From: a virus | Virus genome (UHGV): UHGV-0088365 | Strand: one strand, 5' to 3' | Length of the DNA stretch: 16,601 bases | Shown here: positions 3,213 through 14,926 of the stretch, in pieces | Numbering within the stretch: position 1 is the stretch's first letter | Layout of the letters: the number at the start of each line of letters is the position of its first letter | The notes under the pieces: model-generated | The model's database searches: none | What the model saw: only the letters and a program-made list of their open reading frames with translations | What the model was told of the DNA's origin: nothing | Made by a program: the position numbers and the translations under genes

Positions 3213-3367
3213 CAAAGTTTCCCCAGGAACGTTACGCAAAAGTTGATGAGAGCAAAGAGTTCAATGCCCAGCTCAAACAACGCCAGGACAGTGAAAAACA
3301 GGACATATAGCAACCCAATTTCTGAACCGGATTGCTGGTGGATTGCACTAATTGCGACAAGCATCAT
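3212..3367 (-). CDS. Small hydrophobic membrane peptide, about 51 aa, first gene of the leftward operon
   Basis: Not in the ORF track (too short). ATGATG at 3367..3362 preceded by AGGAGG; translation MMLVAISAIHQQSGSEIGLLYVLFFTVLALFELGIELFALINFCVTFLGKL; stop TGA overlaps the ATG of the DUF4406-like gene. Confidence 0.45.
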   Translation of the reverse strand: MMLVAISAIHQQSGSEIGLLYVLFFTVLALFELGIELFALINFCVTFLGKL

Positions 3368-3408: not shown

Positions 3409-3438
3409 TGTTAGAAAATCAATTTTGATTTTCTAACA
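3409..3438. promoter_or_regulatory. Perfect 30-bp palindrome TGTTAGAAAATCAATTTTGATTTTCTAACA in the divergent intergenic region; putative operator
   Basis: Read directly: the two 14-nt arms TGTTAGAAAATCAA and TTGATTTTCTAACA are exact reverse complements with a 2-nt centre (TT). It lies between the leftward operon start (3367) and the Ref-like gene start (3484). Related half-sites occur at 4060-4069 and in the 13973-14013 inverted repeat. Confidence 0.6.
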
Positions 3439-3483: not shown

Positions 3484-4059
3484 ATGAAGCAAAGCTATTG
3501 GGAGAAACAGACACAAAAAGCCCTGCAAAAACTGGCTGATCCGAAATGGCGAGAGGAACAAAGGGCAAAGCGTCTTCAGCAAGCTCAACGCCAGCAGCAG
3601 CGTGCGCGAGAAAAAGCCGCATCGCCTGAATATCGGCAAAAGAAAATTGAAAAAGCGAAGCAATATGAACAGCGAAGAAAAGAGAAGGCCGCTTCTGCTC
3701 CTGTCAAAAAAACTCGCGCGTCACGCGGCCTGAAAGGCAGAACACTCACAGCAGATGAGCGCCGGATACAAACTGCCATCGGTGCTCTCCCCTGCATTGC
3801 CTGCCATATGCACGGACAGCATAGCCCTGTGGTATCCCTGCACCACATCTTCGGAAGAACAGCAGAGAACGCGCATAAATACGTCCTCCCTTTGTGTAAA
3901 TGGCACCATCAACACGCAGCGCCAGCAGAGATCCGCGAGCAATACCCCTGGTTGGTTCCTGTTCATGCTGATGGAAAAATAGGCGGTAAAGCAGATTTCA
4001 GGCGGCACAATGCTGATGAAATGACGTTGTATCAGATGGCGATTGAATTGATGAATTAG
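3484..4059 (+). CDS. Ref-like recombination-enhancement HNH-family nuclease (basic disordered N-terminus plus Cys/His-rich C-terminal core), 191 aa
   Basis: ATG at 3484 (MKQSYWEKQ...). The N-terminal half is very K/R/Q-rich; the C-terminal half has CIACHMHGQ...LHHIFGRT...CKWHHQ, consistent with an HNH-type metal-binding nuclease core as described for phage P1 Ref. The track ORF starts further upstream at 3442. Confidence 0.65.
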   Translation: MKQSYWEKQTQKALQKLADPKWREEQRAKRLQQAQRQQQRAREKAASPEYRQKKIEKAKQYEQRRKEKAASAPVKKTRASRGLKGRTLTADERRIQTAIGALPCIACHMHGQHSPVVSLHHIFGRTAENAHKYVLPLCKWHHQHAAPAEIREQYPWLVPVHADGKIGGKADFRRHNADEMTLYQMAIELMN

Positions 4060-4075
4060 TTTTCTAACATTTTAA
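4056..4075. promoter_or_regulatory. Single copy of the TTTTCTAACA half-site immediately after the Ref-like stop codon
   Basis: TTTTCTAACA at 4060-4069 is identical to the right arm of the 3409-3438 palindrome; no convincing partner arm is seen upstream. Confidence 0.35.
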
Positions 4076-4390
4076 GTTGAATTATAAATTTCTCCGATGT
4101 ACATTCACTACCGATTGGCACACCGGTCAACTTTTTGAGACAAACTGTATAGTTTTTCGTATTATTGCCGCCGCCATACCTATGGCGGTGCAATATAGGT
4201 GGCTGAAAAGCCCCCGTTGACTCACGGTGTTCCAGCCTTTATTGCGCCGCCGCCAGACCGTGGAACAGTCGATGGCGGCTCCGAAAGCAAGGAGTCACTA
4301 CACTATGAACAGCTACTGTCTTTTCCCATCACTCGTTATCCGCCACTCACGCGATAATCTGCATTCTTTACTCGCGCTGGGGGTGTCAAA

Positions 4391-4762: not shown

Positions 4763-5140
4763 ATGGCTGCAACCGAAGCAGAAGCTCGTTCATACCTTCC
4801 TGAAGAACCCTGCATTTTTGCCGCACGCTTCACTCTTGATGCGATGGAGATCCTAAATTACTGGAATCTTCTTGTTTGGTGCTTTTCCAGCTTTGTTCAG
4901 GAAAGACTTTATAACTTTTATTGGGTATTTGTAGTGATGCTGATACTGGCATTCCTCACAGCCGGAATTGGCCCGTGGATTGCCTCATTTATCTGGGCGT
5001 TCATGTATAATAAATATTTCACCGTAAATAAGATAAAACAAGGCTTCATTTTTGCTGGTTCTCACACAGAAAATGAGTTGGCTGCTAGCAAGCTAGGATT
5101 GTCATTAAATCAAAACAACTGCAAAACTATTACCGAGTAA
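4763..5140 (+). CDS. Putative small inner-membrane protein (two predicted TM helices); start uncertain (4763 or 4844)
   Basis: ORF-track ORF; hydrophobic segments LLVWCFSSFV and YWVFVVMLILAFLTAGIGPWIASFIWAFM. The body is AT-rich relative to flanks. No clear Shine-Dalgarno at either candidate ATG. Confidence 0.45.
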   Translation: MAATEAEARSYLPEEPCIFAARFTLDAMEILNYWNLLVWCFSSFVQERLYNFYWVFVVMLILAFLTAGIGPWIASFIWAFMYNKYFTVNKIKQGFIFAGSHTENELAASKLGLSLNQNNCKTITE

Positions 5141-5179: not shown

Positions 5180-6013
5180 TCACGAATCTCTCTGACAATT
5201 CAGAAACATAAACGCCCGCTTGTCTGTTAAATCCGTAACATAATACTCTCTCATGCCTGTAGGTTTTATTCTACGAGCATATACAAACTTATGAACTGGT
5301 TGTTTTTCCCCATAACTTACATCAGTCCTAAATTCATCAACCACGCTACCATCTTTTTCAGTTTCCTTTCTCACTAGCTGATTTTCTAATACAGGCTTTG
5401 ATTCGTCCATGCCACTAAAAGCATCCTGACCTGTGCTGTTGCCTCGGTTTCCGCGTGGCAAATCCCATGAAAAATAAGTGCCATAGTCAGTAATCACACG
5501 ATCCCATGTTCCGGAATCCCCCATATAGTTAGAACGCTCCCCCTTGTAAGTTACAGCCACCTTACAGGCATACGTTTCACCATTATTTTTTTTATCATGT
5601 CCAGCCATGCTTGCAGGAGTTGCAGGGGAATTATGAATAGATGCGCTTACATCATCCTGCGTTAATTCCTCAACTGGAGCAAATTCATATATGGGTGTGC
5701 CGAGGCTATTTAAATATAACTTATATCTAACCCTAAGCGCACTTCCATCAGAAAATTCATACGTTCCCAGACATTGGAGCTTATTTTTTTCTCTTATCTC
5801 ATTGATCTGATTATAAGCATCAATTACAGAGATTGCTTCCTGATCGTCCTTCAGCAGTTCATTATAATCATCGATTAACATCTGTCTGGTTTTAGGGGCA
5901 TTACAGTCAATTTTGCTAAAATCATAAGCAAAGGCAAATGTGGGAACAGAGAGAGCAACAACAGTAGCAAGTATTGTTGAGGAACATCTTTTTCCATTTT
6001 TTATAAAAAACAT
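5180..6013 (-). CDS. Secreted or periplasmic protein of unknown function with Sec signal peptide, about 277 aa
   Basis: ORF-track ORF 5180..6091 trimmed to the ATG at 6013 (GGAG 8 nt upstream), giving MFFIKNGKRCSSTILATVVALSVPTFAFA-YDF: basic n-region, hydrophobic core and AFA cleavage-type motif. Mature part is rich in Gly, Tyr and Trp. AT-rich. No family recognised. Confidence 0.7.
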   Translation of the reverse strand: MFFIKNGKRCSSTILATVVALSVPTFAFAYDFSKIDCNAPKTRQMLIDDYNELLKDDQEAISVIDAYNQINEIREKNKLQCLGTYEFSDGSALRVRYKLYLNSLGTPIYEFAPVEELTQDDVSASIHNSPATPASMAGHDKKNNGETYACKVAVTYKGERSNYMGDSGTWDRVITDYGTYFSWDLPRGNRGNSTGQDAFSGMDESKPVLENQLVRKETEKDGSVVDEFRTDVSYGEKQPVHKFVYARRIKPTGMREYYVTDLTDKRAFMFLNCQRDS

Positions 6014-6305
6014 TTCATTAACTCCATACTTTACCATCTTAGCCGCGAGCGCGGTCCCTAAAACCCTTAACTTCACTACACCGTCCTTCATGTAAACAAA
6101 ATGAGGTTTTATGTTATAAAAACAATCAACTTCATCAACATGATTTAGGCCAAGTTTCGGTCAAATAATAAAATCCTCAAAAAGTGGTTGACACTATTCT
6201 GGAAATCACAAACTGCACATAATCCATCGCGCTAACGGCTCCCGTTGAAGGTTCTTTTGACGATTAACTTTCAGCCGAAGCGCGGTAGGGAGTCATAACG
6301 CCAAA

Positions 6306-7148: not shown

Positions 7149-7341
7149 GTCATTCACTCCGTTTAATTTTTAATCTAATGCCAGCAAATGAAGCTGGCCC
7201 CCGCATAAAGATTAATGAAAGTCACTTGTCACCAGTGAGGGGATTTATGAACCACATCCCCCTGAACTGGTGGCCTGTCTGTTTCTCGCATTTCACACCC
7301 TGCATACAGTTTCCCCCAGGTTATGACTGAGAGGCTTTGTT

Positions 7342-7671
7342 ATGGGCTATAGCAGACTCGACGATAGGTACATTGAAGACGATATTTTTCGTGCGCTGTT
7401 TCACCAGGAAATGATTAAGAGGGTATCGGAGTATCACTCTGATAATTTCCAGTACACGATAAAGATTGATGAAGTATATCGTTCAGACCTTGCAGCCTAC
7501 AGGGCGTATGGCAATGCAGATTTGCGCTGGGTATTCCGGGTGCTGGTGGGCCATGAGTCAGAAATGGAAGAAATGCCCGCAGGGACCACGTTAACTCTTC
7601 CTGATGTGGCATGGCTGAGGAACAAGATCCGTGATTACGCAAGCGCGGAACCGGAGATAGAAAATGCCTGA
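7342..7671 (+). CDS. Hypothetical protein, 109 aa, with weak resemblance to the LysM-like phage tail protein X family
   Basis: ORF-track ORF; its stop overlaps the next start by 8 nt. The segment YGNADLRWVFRVLVGHESEMEEMPAGTTLTLPDV loosely resembles the P2 gpX pattern (...YG...V..VL..N.G......LP.GT.v.LPDV) as I recall it; weak. Confidence 0.6.
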   Translation: MGYSRLDDRYIEDDIFRALFHQEMIKRVSEYHSDNFQYTIKIDEVYRSDLAAYRAYGNADLRWVFRVLVGHESEMEEMPAGTTLTLPDVAWLRNKIRDYASAEPEIENA

Positions 7672-9841: not shown

Positions 9842-9854
9842 TAATTACAAAGGA

Positions 9855-9885
9855 AAGCCCACTTGCTAAGTGGGCTTTTTGTATG
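9855..9885. terminator. Hairpin AAAGCCCACTT-gct-AAGTGGGCTTT followed by TTGTATGTGTTTT; terminator, strongest in the plus orientation
   Basis: Perfect 11-bp stem with 3-nt loop between the higA stop (9898) and the 66-aa ORF start (9841). The T-run is on the plus strand; the minus orientation has only TTTCCTTT. Confidence 0.5.
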
Positions 9886-12330: not shown

Positions 12331-13311
12331 GTGGCCCAGGAGTTACAACAATATTTTCTACAGTCAGTGCTCATTAACGATAACAAAGTGCCACGAGACT
12401 GGATTTTTACCGCAGTATATGTAGAAAAAACCAGCCTCAAAGCCCCTTTGCTAAAACTGGAAATTCATGACGCTACCGGCACCGTAATTGATGACTGGAA
12501 AGCCAAATACGGTGCATCGCTGGTGGCTGAAATGGGCGATCCAAACGGTAATGCAGGCACTTTTAAAACAGATTTCTTTGTTACGTCTGCAATGCTGGCT
12601 GGTGATGTTGTTACCGTTATTGCTGTCAGTGAAGACGTGCGCAGGTTTAAGATCCCCTCCCCGCGCACAAATTTACATACCAACAAAACACCAGACGCTA
12701 TATTCAAGGCATATTCCGGCAAACTTAAAATTACCAGCAGCGTGCTAAAACGCGCAGTTACATATCATCTGAATGCCGGTGACAAACCGTCAAAAATGCT
12801 TTCGGAGATAGCGCGAGACAAAGGTGCATTGTGTTGGGTATGTCGGGGGGAATTTAACTTTTATACCCTGGCTGATCTGATGAAGCAAACGCCATCATTT
12901 ACCTACGAGGGGAATAACCCTAAAGCAGAATACACTTTGTCCAAAATGCGCCTACTCCAACAGGAACATGCGACAACAGCAAAGAATCAATATCGTTTTG
13001 TTGGGTATTCCATGACCGATGGCTACGTCGAATATGGCGATAGCTCACTCCCAGTGCGTTATATATCCGACTCTGATATGGAAACTCTTCGCAATATGCA
13101 GCTGTCTCTCGTCCCCAAAATGGATATAGAAGTCGCAGGCAATCCTGATATAAAACCGGGGATGGTAATAGAGATTATCGTATACCGCTATGACCAGGAA
13201 AACCGCATTGATGAATCAATGCCCCGTAAGCTGATAGTAAAAAATGTTGCGCACTTTGAGGACCGAGTAGGCTACACAACACGAATGATATTGGGAGTGC
13301 CTAACAAATGA
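12331..13311 (+). CDS. Hypothetical protein, 326 aa (GTG start); possibly a baseplate-hub-like protein given its position before the spike-like gene
   Basis: ORF-track ORF; GTG start 3 nt after the upstream stop; ATGA overlap with the downstream spike-like gene. The hub assignment is from gene order only, not from recognised sequence motifs. Confidence 0.65.
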   Translation: MAQELQQYFLQSVLINDNKVPRDWIFTAVYVEKTSLKAPLLKLEIHDATGTVIDDWKAKYGASLVAEMGDPNGNAGTFKTDFFVTSAMLAGDVVTVIAVSEDVRRFKIPSPRTNLHTNKTPDAIFKAYSGKLKITSSVLKRAVTYHLNAGDKPSKMLSEIARDKGALCWVCRGEFNFYTLADLMKQTPSFTYEGNNPKAEYTLSKMRLLQQEHATTAKNQYRFVGYSMTDGYVEYGDSSLPVRYISDSDMETLRNMQLSLVPKMDIEVAGNPDIKPGMVIEIIVYRYDQENRIDESMPRKLIVKNVAHFEDRVGYTTRMILGVPNK

Positions 13312-13961
13312 AGCGTAGAGCACAAATTGTTGGAACTGTGCACCCAGCAGGGCTTATGCGTGCTCAAGTCCGTGTTTTACCTGACTGGAATGGCGTTCCT
13401 GATGACGATCTACCCTGGGCGGAATACCTGTTACCCATCGGGAACGCTTTTGTACCTACAGTCAAAGGTGACCTGGTCTGGGTAGAGTTTCCTTATTTAG
13501 ATGTTAACGGTCGAATAGACACCAGACGCCCAATGATAGTTGGCGCGGCTCAGGATGCGCCTGGCGGAGTTCCAAACGTCGCGCCGGAGGCGTCAGGCAA
13601 TGGTAGCGGCTGGACGCCGCCGGAAGTAGATGGAGCACCTCCCCGCCCCCAAATCTCAGCAACGAAAGACTTCGTTATTCACCGCAACAATATTCTTGAA
13701 GTACGAACTGCTGGTGGCGGCTATGAAATTGCCAATACGGCAGCAGGCTCAAGGATTGGCATGAATGAGTCCGGGCAGATATATATCATTGGTCCGGCTG
13801 ATGTAATCGTGAATGCAGGAGGGAGTGTTAACGTCAAATCAGCCAACAACATCAATGTTAATGGGGAAAATATTGCTGTCACCGCTAACGGGGACATAGC
13901 TTTCAAGGCAGGGGGAACCTTTCAGGCCACTGCTGGCAACTTCGATTTCAAGAAAGGATAG
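13308..13961 (+). CDS. Baseplate-spike-like protein (gpV/gp45-type N-terminal OB-fold pattern plus Gly-rich beta-helix-like C-terminus), 217 aa
   Basis: ORF-track ORF. N-terminus IVGTV...RAQVRV...LPWAEYL...GDLVWVEF resembles the Phage_base_V pattern (compared from memory with Mu gp45 and P2 gpV); C-terminus has short repeats GGSVNVKSANNINVNGENIAVTANGDIAFKAGGTF typical of spike beta-helices. Confidence 0.6.
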   Translation: MKRRAQIVGTVHPAGLMRAQVRVLPDWNGVPDDDLPWAEYLLPIGNAFVPTVKGDLVWVEFPYLDVNGRIDTRRPMIVGAAQDAPGGVPNVAPEASGNGSGWTPPEVDGAPPRPQISATKDFVIHRNNILEVRTAGGGYEIANTAAGSRIGMNESGQIYIIGPADVIVNAGGSVNVKSANNINVNGENIAVTANGDIAFKAGGTFQATAGNFDFKKG

Positions 13962-13972
13962 AAAATGCACCC

Positions 13973-14013
13973 ATTTGTGTTAGATAATTAACGCATATTT
14001 TCTAACACAAATG
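13973..14013. promoter_or_regulatory. 13-bp perfect inverted repeat CATTTGTGTTAGA-N15-TCTAACACAAATG directly upstream of rdgC; related to the 3409-3438 palindrome
   Basis: Read directly; arms at 13973-13985 and 14001-14013. It shares the core TGTTAGA / TCTAACA with the two sites at 3409-3438 and 4060-4069. No T-run follows, so it does not look like an intrinsic terminator. Confidence 0.55.
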
Positions 14014-14020
14014 GTGAGAA

Positions 14021-14926
14021 ATGAGATCAGTCGCTTTCAAAAATATCTTCATCTATCGTCTTTCACGCGAAGTTAACTGGGATACCGCAGTAGTAAATGC
14101 AGCCCTTAGCAAGTTTGTGTTTACCCCATGCGGTTCTCAGGATATGGCTAAAGCTGGTTGGACCCCAATTCTTGGCGACAACCTCACCCATGAAAACCAG
14201 GGTTTTCTTCTGATGCAGCATAAACGAGAGGAAAAAATCCTGCCTTCTCAAGTACTCAAAGAAGAGTTACAGAAAAAAATCCTGAAACTTGAAGAAGAGC
14301 AAGACAGAAAGCTGAAGAAGACCGAAAAAGATTCGCTGAAGGATGAAGTGCTTCACTCTCTTCTTCCTCGTGCTTTCACGAGAAAATCACTCGCAAAAAT
14401 CCTGATCGACCGCAGCAACCATCTGGTATTCGTTGAGGCAAGCAGCGCCAAAAAGGCAGAGGACCAGCTGGCTTTATTGCGAAAATCGCTCGGCAGCCTG
14501 CCTGTCATTCCATTCACACCACGCGAACCGCTGGAAATTACAATGACCGAGTGGTTTAAAAACGGCTTCCCTGCCGGATTTACAGCAGGTGAAGACGCCA
14601 CATTAAAGGGTCTGCTCGATAATGGTGGTGCCGTTCGCTGTAACAAAGTTGATCTACAGTCCGACGAGATTATGTCTCACATTGAGGCGGGGAAAGTAGC
14701 TACGACCGTTGCAATTAACTGGATGGACCGCGCGTCGTTCAGAGTCAACGATGATATGAGTATCAAAGCCCTGACATTCTGTGATGATCTCTATGACCAG
14801 AACGACGATATCGACCGGGAGGATGTAGCACAACGATTTGATGCTGATTTCGTGCTCTTTACGGGCGAATTATCTGCACTGTTTAACGCGCTGGTGGAGG
14901 CCATTGGCGGTGAAGCAGAACGATAA
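14021..14926 (+). CDS. rdgC: RdgC-family recombination-associated protein, 301 aa
   Basis: ORF-track ORF; long colinear identity with E. coli RdgC as I recall it (FKN..YRLSRE..., FTPCGSQDMAKAGW, REEKILPS, KKTEKDSLKDEVLHSLLPRAF, ASSAKKAEDQLALLRKSLGSLPV). Confidence 0.9.
   Translation: MRSVAFKNIFIYRLSREVNWDTAVVNAALSKFVFTPCGSQDMAKAGWTPILGDNLTHENQGFLLMQHKREEKILPSQVLKEELQKKILKLEEEQDRKLKKTEKDSLKDEVLHSLLPRAFTRKSLAKILIDRSNHLVFVEASSAKKAEDQLALLRKSLGSLPVIPFTPREPLEITMTEWFKNGFPAGFTAGEDATLKGLLDNGGAVRCNKVDLQSDEIMSHIEAGKVATTVAINWMDRASFRVNDDMSIKALTFCDDLYDQNDDIDREDVAQRFDADFVLFTGELSALFNALVEAIGGEAER

Follow-up and report, generated by a model that had tools for sequence, protein, structure and literature searches.

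A probable bivalent operator of a D6-type C1-family immunity repressor upstream of hrdC in a P1-related phage-plasmid

The inverted repeat in front of the hrdC (rdgC) gene of a D6-like phage-plasmid is probably a bivalent operator of the D6-type C1-family immunity repressor, lying over the hrdC promoter and predicted to be bound by that repressor. The DNA analysed here, referred to as the window, is a stretch of 16,601 nucleotides from UHGV virus genome UHGV-0088365. It shares 97.5% identity with Escherichia phage D6, a plasmid prophage related to P1, and 99.6% with E. coli plasmids, and we assign it to a D6-like, P1-related phage-plasmid. As the c1 gene falls outside the 16.6-kb window, the identity of the regulator is deduced from near-identical complete elements. 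The kind of system is already known, namely that of the P1-type C1 operators. As far as we have checked, the sequence of the D6-type operator, the head-to-head geometry of its pairs, and the co-varying outer arms of the hrdC site are new details, and a search of literature text for the motif strings found no relevant paper.

The inverted repeat and its setting

The repeat consists of two perfect 14-bp arms, CCATTTGTGTTAGA (13971-13984) and TCTAACACAAATGG (14001-14014), that flank a 16-bp spacer, TAATTAACGCATATTT (Table 1). If one mismatch is allowed, each arm reaches further inward, to 18 nt, and 8 nt remain between the two. The preliminary description of this DNA was right that an inverted repeat is present, although it gave arms of 13 bp around an N15 spacer at 13973-14013, slightly short of the true extent. 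The repeat is located between the stop codon of a homologue of P1 gene 5, a baseplate gene (13308-13961), and the rdgC/hrdC start codon. In the D6 annotation the genes on the 3' side of the repeat are hrdC, of the RdgC family, a cytosine methylase, and dmt.

Table 1. Features of the hrdC, ref, and immI-like regions of the window; promoters and half-site extents are predictions
Feature	Coordinates	Strand	Remarks
Whole inverted repeat	13971-14014		14-bp perfect arms and 16-bp spacer; read as a bivalent (head-to-head) operator before hrdC/rdgC
Left half-site gcgTTAATTATCTAACAca	13976-13994	-	Overlaps the -10 box; extent estimated from information content
Right half-site acgcaTATTTTCTAACAca	13991-14009	+	Spans the predicted transcription start and early 5' UTR
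Left arm outer extension CCATTTG	13971-13977		Co-varies with 14008-14014
Right arm outer extension CAAATGG	14008-14014		Final GG within the rdgC ribosome-binding site GGTGAG
Sigma-70-like promoter	13959-13988	+	-35 TAGAAA (13959-13964), 18-bp spacer, -10 GATAAT (13983-13988); predicted start near 13995; putative function
rdgC/hrdC	14021-14926	+	Leads the hrdC-dcm-dmt operon; Pfam RdgC, E 6e-102; D6 orf65 annotated 'similar to P1 hrdC'
Second bivalent operator (putative)	3409-3438		Same 16-bp core spacing; between divergent ref (ATG 3484) and the orf88-like early operon
Ref-family RecA-dependent nuclease gene (ref)	3484-4059	+	Pfam RecA_dep_nuc, E 1.7e-36; named ref in the D6 annotation
Lone (monovalent) half-site gaaTTAGTTTTCTAACAtt	4053-4071	+	Begins directly past the ref stop; position equals that of P1 Omat
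Promoter-like TTGAAT-17-TACATT	4077-4105	+	Abuts the lone operator; putative, from a hexamer scan in D6; kept in 4 of 5 relatives
Second promoter-like GAGACA-17-TATTAT	4137-4165	+	Directly 5' of the C4-like RNA; conserved
C4-like antisense RNA (immI-type)	4178-4257	+	Rfam RF01695, 37.7 bits, below the gathering score of 45; E 2.8e-5; full-length model match

The geometry TGTTAGA-N16-TCTAACA is common to this repeat and to the 30-bp palindrome at 3409-3438. The palindrome had been reported before and is present, with perfect 14-bp arms and 2 nt between them; the common geometry had gone unnoticed. At two or fewer mismatches the pattern has only two matches in the window, compared with a mean of 0.04 in shuffled sequences, and none of 200 shuffles reached two. 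The repeats at 13971-14014 and 3409-3438 are also the two strongest short-range inverted repeats of the entire window. A third copy of the motif, likewise noted earlier, is present as a lone TCTAACA at 4063-4069, 4 nt past the ref stop codon. The recurrence of one motif at three sites greatly exceeds what chance would give and is best explained by a shared regulator that binds DNA at promoters; a common regulator was one of the two possibilities that the preliminary description had raised. A scan of genome contigs for GTTAGATAAT-N10-TTTCTAAC returned 67 matching stretches, mostly from Sphingomonadales, all of them unrelated and with no enterobacterial relative among them.

Other readings of the repeat were considered and rejected. 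No rho-independent terminator was called; the stem is rich in A and T, its loop measures 8-16 nt, and it is followed by GAGAAATG rather than by a U-tract. It is also extremely improbable that the repeat belongs to an Lpa-dependent late promoter or that it is a palindrome arisen by chance in an AT-rich intergenic region. A late promoter would suit the adjoining late tail genes, and the late promoters of P1 do carry a small palindrome. However, the -22 box of the P1 late promoters, AAGTGACTT (9 bp, from LPmat), is unrelated to TGTTAGA and is not found at the repeat, and it is because of this difference in sequence that we reject a late promoter here. A good copy of AAGTGACTT does occur in the window at 7219-7227, in the expected place upstream of gene 26. 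Chance is ruled out by the shuffled controls, by the enrichment of the motif in D6, and by its invariance across relatives whose flanking genes are only ~70% identical, both of which are described below.

A family of half-sites in D6 and its relatives

The recognition unit is predicted to be an asymmetric half-site of ~19 bp, AnnTTAATTTTCTAACAca, and not the palindrome. This consensus was derived from 32 sites in D6 and a Shigella plasmid and is informative over ~19 positions. To list the sites, every TCTAA[CT] in the complete D6 genome was taken with its flanks, which gave ~16 sites with their neighboring genes. Chance would have been indicated, as the preliminary description pointed out, by a similar density of the motif throughout unrelated regions of the genome. 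Instead, the 9-mer TTTCTAACA has 12 copies in D6 compared with 0.98 expected (first-order Markov model, 100 simulations, maximum 4). All but one of the 12 copies are intergenic in a genome that is 10.2% non-coding, a placement with a binomial probability of ~1e-10.

Most of the D6 sites are single. Some form inverted pairs, and in these the core-to-core offset is always 17 nt; the paired sites include those at hrdC, at ref/orf88, and at pdcB. As for the other sites, c1 is preceded by one at 22 bp and lpa at 79-85 bp; further sites precede the icd/antirepressor operon, orf52, and the orf117-dut operon, follow ref directly, or belong to the pmgS region. The arrangement is shared by an E. marmotae plasmid whose C1 protein is 81% identical to that of D6 and by a complete Shigella plasmid whose C1 protein is 70% identical, and every paired site in these two plasmids has the same 17-nt offset. 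The Shigella plasmid (CP026808) has single or paired sites at pdcB, ref, the end of ref, hrdC, an orf52-like gene, the pmgS region, lpa, c1, and cre.

This distribution bears on the kind of regulon. The presence of the motif in front of two recombination-related genes had been taken to suggest an accessory regulon, but the motif also precedes c1, lpa, pdcB, icd/antirepressor, and orf117-dut and is found in the pmgS region. Such a set is expected of a prophage immunity repressor, and the best reading of the sites is as a putative immunity (C1) regulon rather than a recombination regulon.

The candidate repressor

The protein encoded by D6 orf1, annotated as a prophage repressor, is collinear with P1 C1 (21% identity over 240 aa, E 2e-8), and both proteins belong to PHROG 1678. 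The match of D6 C1 to the NCBIfam model phage_rep_C1 (E 9e-6) is far below the equivalog cut-off. These comparisons place D6 C1 as a distant homologue of P1 C1. A D6-type C1 is encoded in 149 plasmids, with a distribution over host genera that closely matches that of the matches to the rdgC region.

A syntenic Citrobacter plasmid provides a comparison in which the repressor has diverged. Its C1 is only ~29% identical, the D6 motif is not enriched, and there is no paired site. A different motif, ATTCTAAGG, occurs in 6 copies against 0.54 expected, all of them intergenic, at positions upstream of rdgC, ref, and c1 and just downstream of cre. A TCTAA core is common to all three operator types, those of P1 (CTCTAATA), D6 (TTTCTAACA), and the Citrobacter plasmid (ATTCTAAGG). 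The sequence of the site tracks the repressor clade while its position stays fixed, which is the pattern expected if C1 is the protein that binds. The site 22 bp before the c1 ATG fits autoregulation, as in P1.

We consider it quite improbable that another regulator binds the motif, whether the 94-aa HTH protein encoded at 2287-2571, another protein of the element, or a host factor. The tie between C1 and the motif comes from sequence comparison, and the 94-aa protein, which had been put forward earlier as a candidate, has properties that would suit the role: it matches PHROG 323, 'transcriptional regulator, D5-like' (E 2e-23), with a weak match to sigma-70 region 4, and its gene belongs to the early operon that lies downstream of the ref/orf88 site. 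However, tblastn found no homologue of this protein in Shigella plasmid CP026808, which has kept the entire set of sites along with a C1 of 70% identity. The switch of motif to ATTCTAAGG takes place exactly where C1 is highly diverged, the c1-proximal site is suited to regulation by C1 itself, and a host factor would not explain why the motif switches among plasmids of related hosts.

Conservation of the hrdC site and its promoter

To follow the hrdC site through its relatives we used an alignment of 20 distinct versions of the site from plasmids and IMG/VR contigs, with flanking genes down to ~70% identity. The core TGTGTTAGATAATT..A.....ATTTTCTAACA shows no change in 19 of these, while the center of the spacer and the flanking genes diverge. 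The inner arms depart from symmetry at one point only, GATAAT on the left compared with GAAAAT (complement) on the right, and this asymmetry is itself invariant. GATAAT is retained in all 20 aligned sequences, including an Enterobacter plasmid that lacks the left half-site and in which the right half-site is the sole half kept. In a further relative the right half-site has a 2-bp deletion, and there rdgC has decayed too, with its ATG changed to ACG and the gene truncated.

A single promoter-like sequence was detected here, TAGAAA-18-GATAAT, with GATAAT as its -10 box; the sequence overlaps the left half-site. The DNA is AT-rich, and promoter calls of this kind match the consensus weakly, here at 9 of 12 positions with a spacer of 18 bp; in addition, a stop codon confounds the call of the -35 box. 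Near the other D6 sites promoter prediction gave ambiguous weak matches only. If the promoter is as predicted, the left half-site would overlap its -10 box and the right half-site would cover its start site, so that a bound repressor would occlude the promoter.

Outer-arm covariation

The outer parts of the arms behave differently from the core. They vary by lineage and stay complementary, as CCATTTG/CAAATGG, CCAATTG/CAATTGG, CCAATTA/TAATTGG, GCAAAACTG/CAGTTTTGC, and CAATG/CATTG. Seven pairs are changed on both sides, with the compensated changes coming from only ~4 lineages. Covariation in the outer 5-7 pairs is above both controls: the score of 0.276 compares with 0.098 in shuffles, of which 0 of 500 reached 0.276, and with at most 0.128 in slid controls. 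The folding energy of the element as RNA is -22.1 kcal/mol (z = -5.9), which was equaled by 0 of 200 shuffles. The other paired sites, at ref, pdcB, and lpa, are without such an outer extension. A change in the specificity of the repressor was tried as the cause of the covariation and rejected, because the other operators of the element with the CAGTTTT-type arm keep their usual flanks. The complementarity of the outer arms at 13971-14014 alone is left unexplained by the operator model, and suggests an RNA hairpin or concerted evolution.

The repeat might, then, be mainly or additionally an RNA hairpin in read-through transcripts from the late tail operon (genes 7-24-6-5), a reading that we regard as unlikely. 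Such a hairpin could be a stabilizer of the 3' end, a processing site, or an insulator between the late and early units, and with its last GG in the ribosome-binding site it could limit translation of rdgC from late messages. The stable fold, the compensated changes in excess of both controls, the restriction of the extension to this site, and the failure of a specificity shift to account for the change of arms all point in this direction. On the other side, the + strand has no U-tract after the stem and the terminator scan was negative at the repeat, and an Rfam search of the whole window at gathering thresholds gave nothing there. The predicted rdgC promoter starts inside the loop, which would leave early mRNA from it without the left arm. 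In the Enterobacter and Citrobacter relatives one half-site is left and the hairpin is absent; the operator together with the -10 box, and not pairing, accounts for the 25 invariant positions; and few lineages contribute to the compensated changes. Template switching can homogenize closely spaced inverted repeats without selection, and neutral homogenization by this route is a candidate explanation for the match of the outer arms.

The ref and immI-like regions

The orf88-like early operon starts at 3367 on the minus strand, and the palindrome between it and ref has a central AATCAATTTTGATT that appears to provide back-to-back TTGATT -35-like boxes, which would place a half-site in the spacer of each of the two divergent promoters. 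The lone half-site at the end of ref is followed by the two promoter-like sequences and the C4-like RNA of Table 1. The sequence of this RNA is nearly invariant across 5 diverged relatives, and an icd-like gene comes next. An antirepressor gene was not evident on the 3' side of the icd-like gene within the window.

Comparison with P1

P1 C1 acts at 22 asymmetric 17-bp operators with the consensus ATTGCTCTAATAAATTT and controls repL and lpa (PMC8546580). The genes ref, dmt, ssb, kilA, and ban are lytic genes of P1 under C1 control (PMC4713147), and Ant is regulated by C1, C4, and Icd (PMC8201110). The P1 annotation places experimentally derived C1 operators at ref, at the end of ref, at hrdC-dmt, at lpa, and at c1, positions that are orthologous to those of the sites in D6 and the window. 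At lpa the agreement extends to distance, with P1 Olpa 71-87 bp before the gene and the D6 site 79-85 bp before it. The operators Oc1a-e of P1 are arranged around c1 and include a bivalent inverted pair. The D6-type sites share with those of P1 an asymmetric operator of ~17-19 bp that occurs singly and as inverted overlapping pairs, and a dispersal around the genome before early and immunity genes, c1 included.

The sequences recognized are different. The P1 consensus ATTGCTCTAATAAATTT has no site at three or fewer mismatches in the window or in D6, and the D6 motif was not found in the P1 fragments compared, so the D6 motif would replace the P1 operator at the same promoters. With only TCTAA in common, the D6-type sites would form a separate specificity class within the family and would not belong to P1/P7 immunity.

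The nearest counterpart of the hrdC site is P1 Odmt (formerly Op68), at Pdmt in the order uhr-hrdC-dmt, where an rdgC-family hrdC is followed by a DNA methylase as it is here. Both would be operators of an immunity repressor at a sigma-70 early promoter, and the two repressors belong to the same protein family. Odmt, however, is a single 17-bp operator that abuts the -35 box and matches ATTGCTCTAATAAATTT, whereas the hrdC site of the window has two head-to-head half-sites, TTTTCTAACA, that flank the predicted -10 box and start. For 3409-3438 and 4053-4071 the counterparts are P1 Oref and Omat (formerly Op2a and Op2b), which lie within the ref promoter and on or next to the ref stop codon, respectively. 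Oref is between the -35 and -10 boxes of P2ref, and the half-sites of the ref site in the window would likewise be in promoter spacers. Unlike Oref, the upstream site of the window is bivalent and shared with a divergent early operon, and unlike Omat, the downstream site precedes a c4-icd-type operon and not mat.

The paired geometry is most readily compared with P1 Oc1ab (formerly Op99a/b), where inverted asymmetric sites for the monomer also form an incomplete palindrome at a promoter. In Oc1ab the two sites are convergent and overlap by 6 bp within 28 bp in total, whereas the D6-type pair is head-to-head (divergent), in a 17-bp register, and ~34-38 bp long. The immI region of P1 consists of a C1-controlled promoter, a constitutive promoter, the c4 antisense RNA, icd, and ant. 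The window has its elements in the same order, the lone operator first, then the pair of promoter-like sites, the C4-like RNA, and finally the icd-like gene, although the C4 match of the window does not reach the Rfam gathering score. The operator and promoters of the P1 counterpart are Op51, P51a, and P51b.

A model for repression

In the operator model the two half-sites of the hrdC repeat would lie head-to-head in a 17-bp register with a central overlap of ~4 bp. The left half-site would cover the -10 box GATAAT at 13983-13988, in a promoter whose predicted -35 box shares bases with the stop codon of the preceding tail gene, and the right half-site would cover the predicted start site and the first ~15 nt of the transcript. 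In a lysogen, one repressor molecule at each half-site would exclude RNA polymerase and silence hrdC(rdgC)-dcm-dmt; once the repressor is inactivated, these genes would be switched on as an early lytic function. The palindrome at 3409-3438 may have the same role for the divergent promoters of ref and orf88-ppp, and the lone half-site at 4053-4071 may control the first promoter of the c4-icd (immI-like) operon.

Structure of the C1 proteins

The C1 proteins have no Pfam match, and neither single-sequence nor profile searches found a relative in the PDB. A structural model of C1 resembles Tus, although at TM-scores of 0.31-0.41, which are low and make the likeness a structural lead and neither proof nor family membership. 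E. coli Tus and C1 have no sequence similarity even by profile search, and Tus-Ter serves in fork arrest, whereas the function proposed here is transcriptional repression. In one respect the two systems agree, as Tus is a monomer that clamps an asymmetric site and the C1 operators are asymmetric. C1 has been reported to bind as a monomer. A literature search for a link between Tus, the C1 repressor, and phage P1 found no relevant paper. On the basis of the model, we raise as a tentative proposal, held at low confidence, that the C1 family of the P1/D6-type phage-plasmids may be a Tus-fold monomeric DNA clamp, with half-sites that are Ter-like and a head-to-head pair that would act as a bidirectional roadblock. 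Were this true, it would explain the asymmetric, monomer-bound operators of the P1 type. The repeat at 13971-14014 would then, besides occluding the promoter, halt RNA polymerase that reads through from the late tail operon, and perhaps other translocating machines as well; selection for self-complementary outer arms at this junction would belong to the same insulator function.

Significance

The finding in its original form, one site shared by two recombination genes, would otherwise come as no surprise to a specialist on P1. For the D6-type immunity repressor, the analysis yields an operator sequence and a likely regulon. D6-like phage-plasmids account for ~150-170 PLSDB records and are common in E. 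coli, Salmonella, and Shigella, and the operator may be used in predicting immunity groups and in annotating the lytic and lysogenic genes of D6-like plasmids. The repressor and its operator would also make an orthogonal pair from the same phage as the Dre/rox recombinase system. The operators of P1, D6, and the Citrobacter plasmid, which occupy orthologous promoters, offer a natural series for the change of specificity in a monomeric repressor, and the Tus-like model, if confirmed, would suggest how the C1 repressor reads asymmetric DNA.

An immI-like operon with a C4-like RNA

The Rfam model RF01695 aligned over its full length with a C4-like antisense RNA in the window (E 2.8e-5), at a score of 37.7 bits that lies under the gathering threshold of 45. 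The sequence of this RNA is almost unchanged across five diverged relatives, and it is flanked by a promoter-like site and an icd-like reading frame. No antirepressor gene like D6 orf82 was evident ahead of the simB-like gene in the window (4763-5140 and on to 5180), and in the closest plasmid the stretch between the icd-like frame and the simB-like gene is an unannotated gap. This element may carry a truncated immI-like operon.

Features of the window and of a Citrobacter relative
Feature	Position	Strand	Context
Promoter-like site	4137-4165		Upstream of C4-like RNA
C4-like antisense RNA	4178-4257	+	Rfam RF01695, sub-threshold match
icd-like reading frame	4763-5140		Downstream of C4-like RNA
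Near-consensus half-site TTTTCTAATAC	5382-5392	+	Within simB-like ORF 5180-6091 (-)
-22 box match AAGTCACTT (other strand AAGTGACTT)	7219-7227		Upstream of gene-26 homologue at 7342
Perfect 11-bp hairpin, 3-nt loop, AAAGCCCACTT / AAGTGGGCTTT	9854-9878		
Operator-like word ATTCTAAGG	NZ_CP099368.1: 49192, 56960, 57031, 61791, 63295		

Other elements and look-alike palindromes

Both D6 and several relatives from IMG/VR keep the additional half-site in the simB-like coding region. The site at 7219-7227, which matches the -22 box of P1 late promoters, is likely to be a late promoter dependent on Lpa. The perfect hairpin, which lies between two minus-strand ORFs near a relE/higA module, is probably a terminator.

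The pattern GTTAGATAAT-N10-TTTCTAAC was found repeatedly across many Sphingomonadales genomes (L038-L104, the matches from a genome contig collection, mostly Sphingomonadales). These matches form a conserved palindrome, GTTAGATAATAGCAYG..TTTTTCTAACAAGC, whose neighbours on the opposite strand are a ribosome-binding site and a start codon. This palindrome is an unrelated operator-like element, and the arm sequence is shared by coincidence.

Apparent operator variation among relatives

At ~500-560 of a relative, the E. coli plasmid NZ_CP069647.1, the right half-site has lost 2 bp (TTTTCTAACA to TTT--TAACA); the rdgC start codon has changed from ATG to ACG and the annotation of the gene is truncated. 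The operator and rdgC appear to be decaying jointly in this plasmid. The Citrobacter plasmid NZ_CP099368.1 (L113/L114) is a syntenic relative with a C1 identity of only ~29%. It contains six copies of the word ATTCTAAGG, compared with 0.54 expected, all of them intergenic (6/6), and the word occupies the rdgC, ref, and cre positions as well as that of c1. The word appears to represent a third operator specificity, with the TCTAA core in common.
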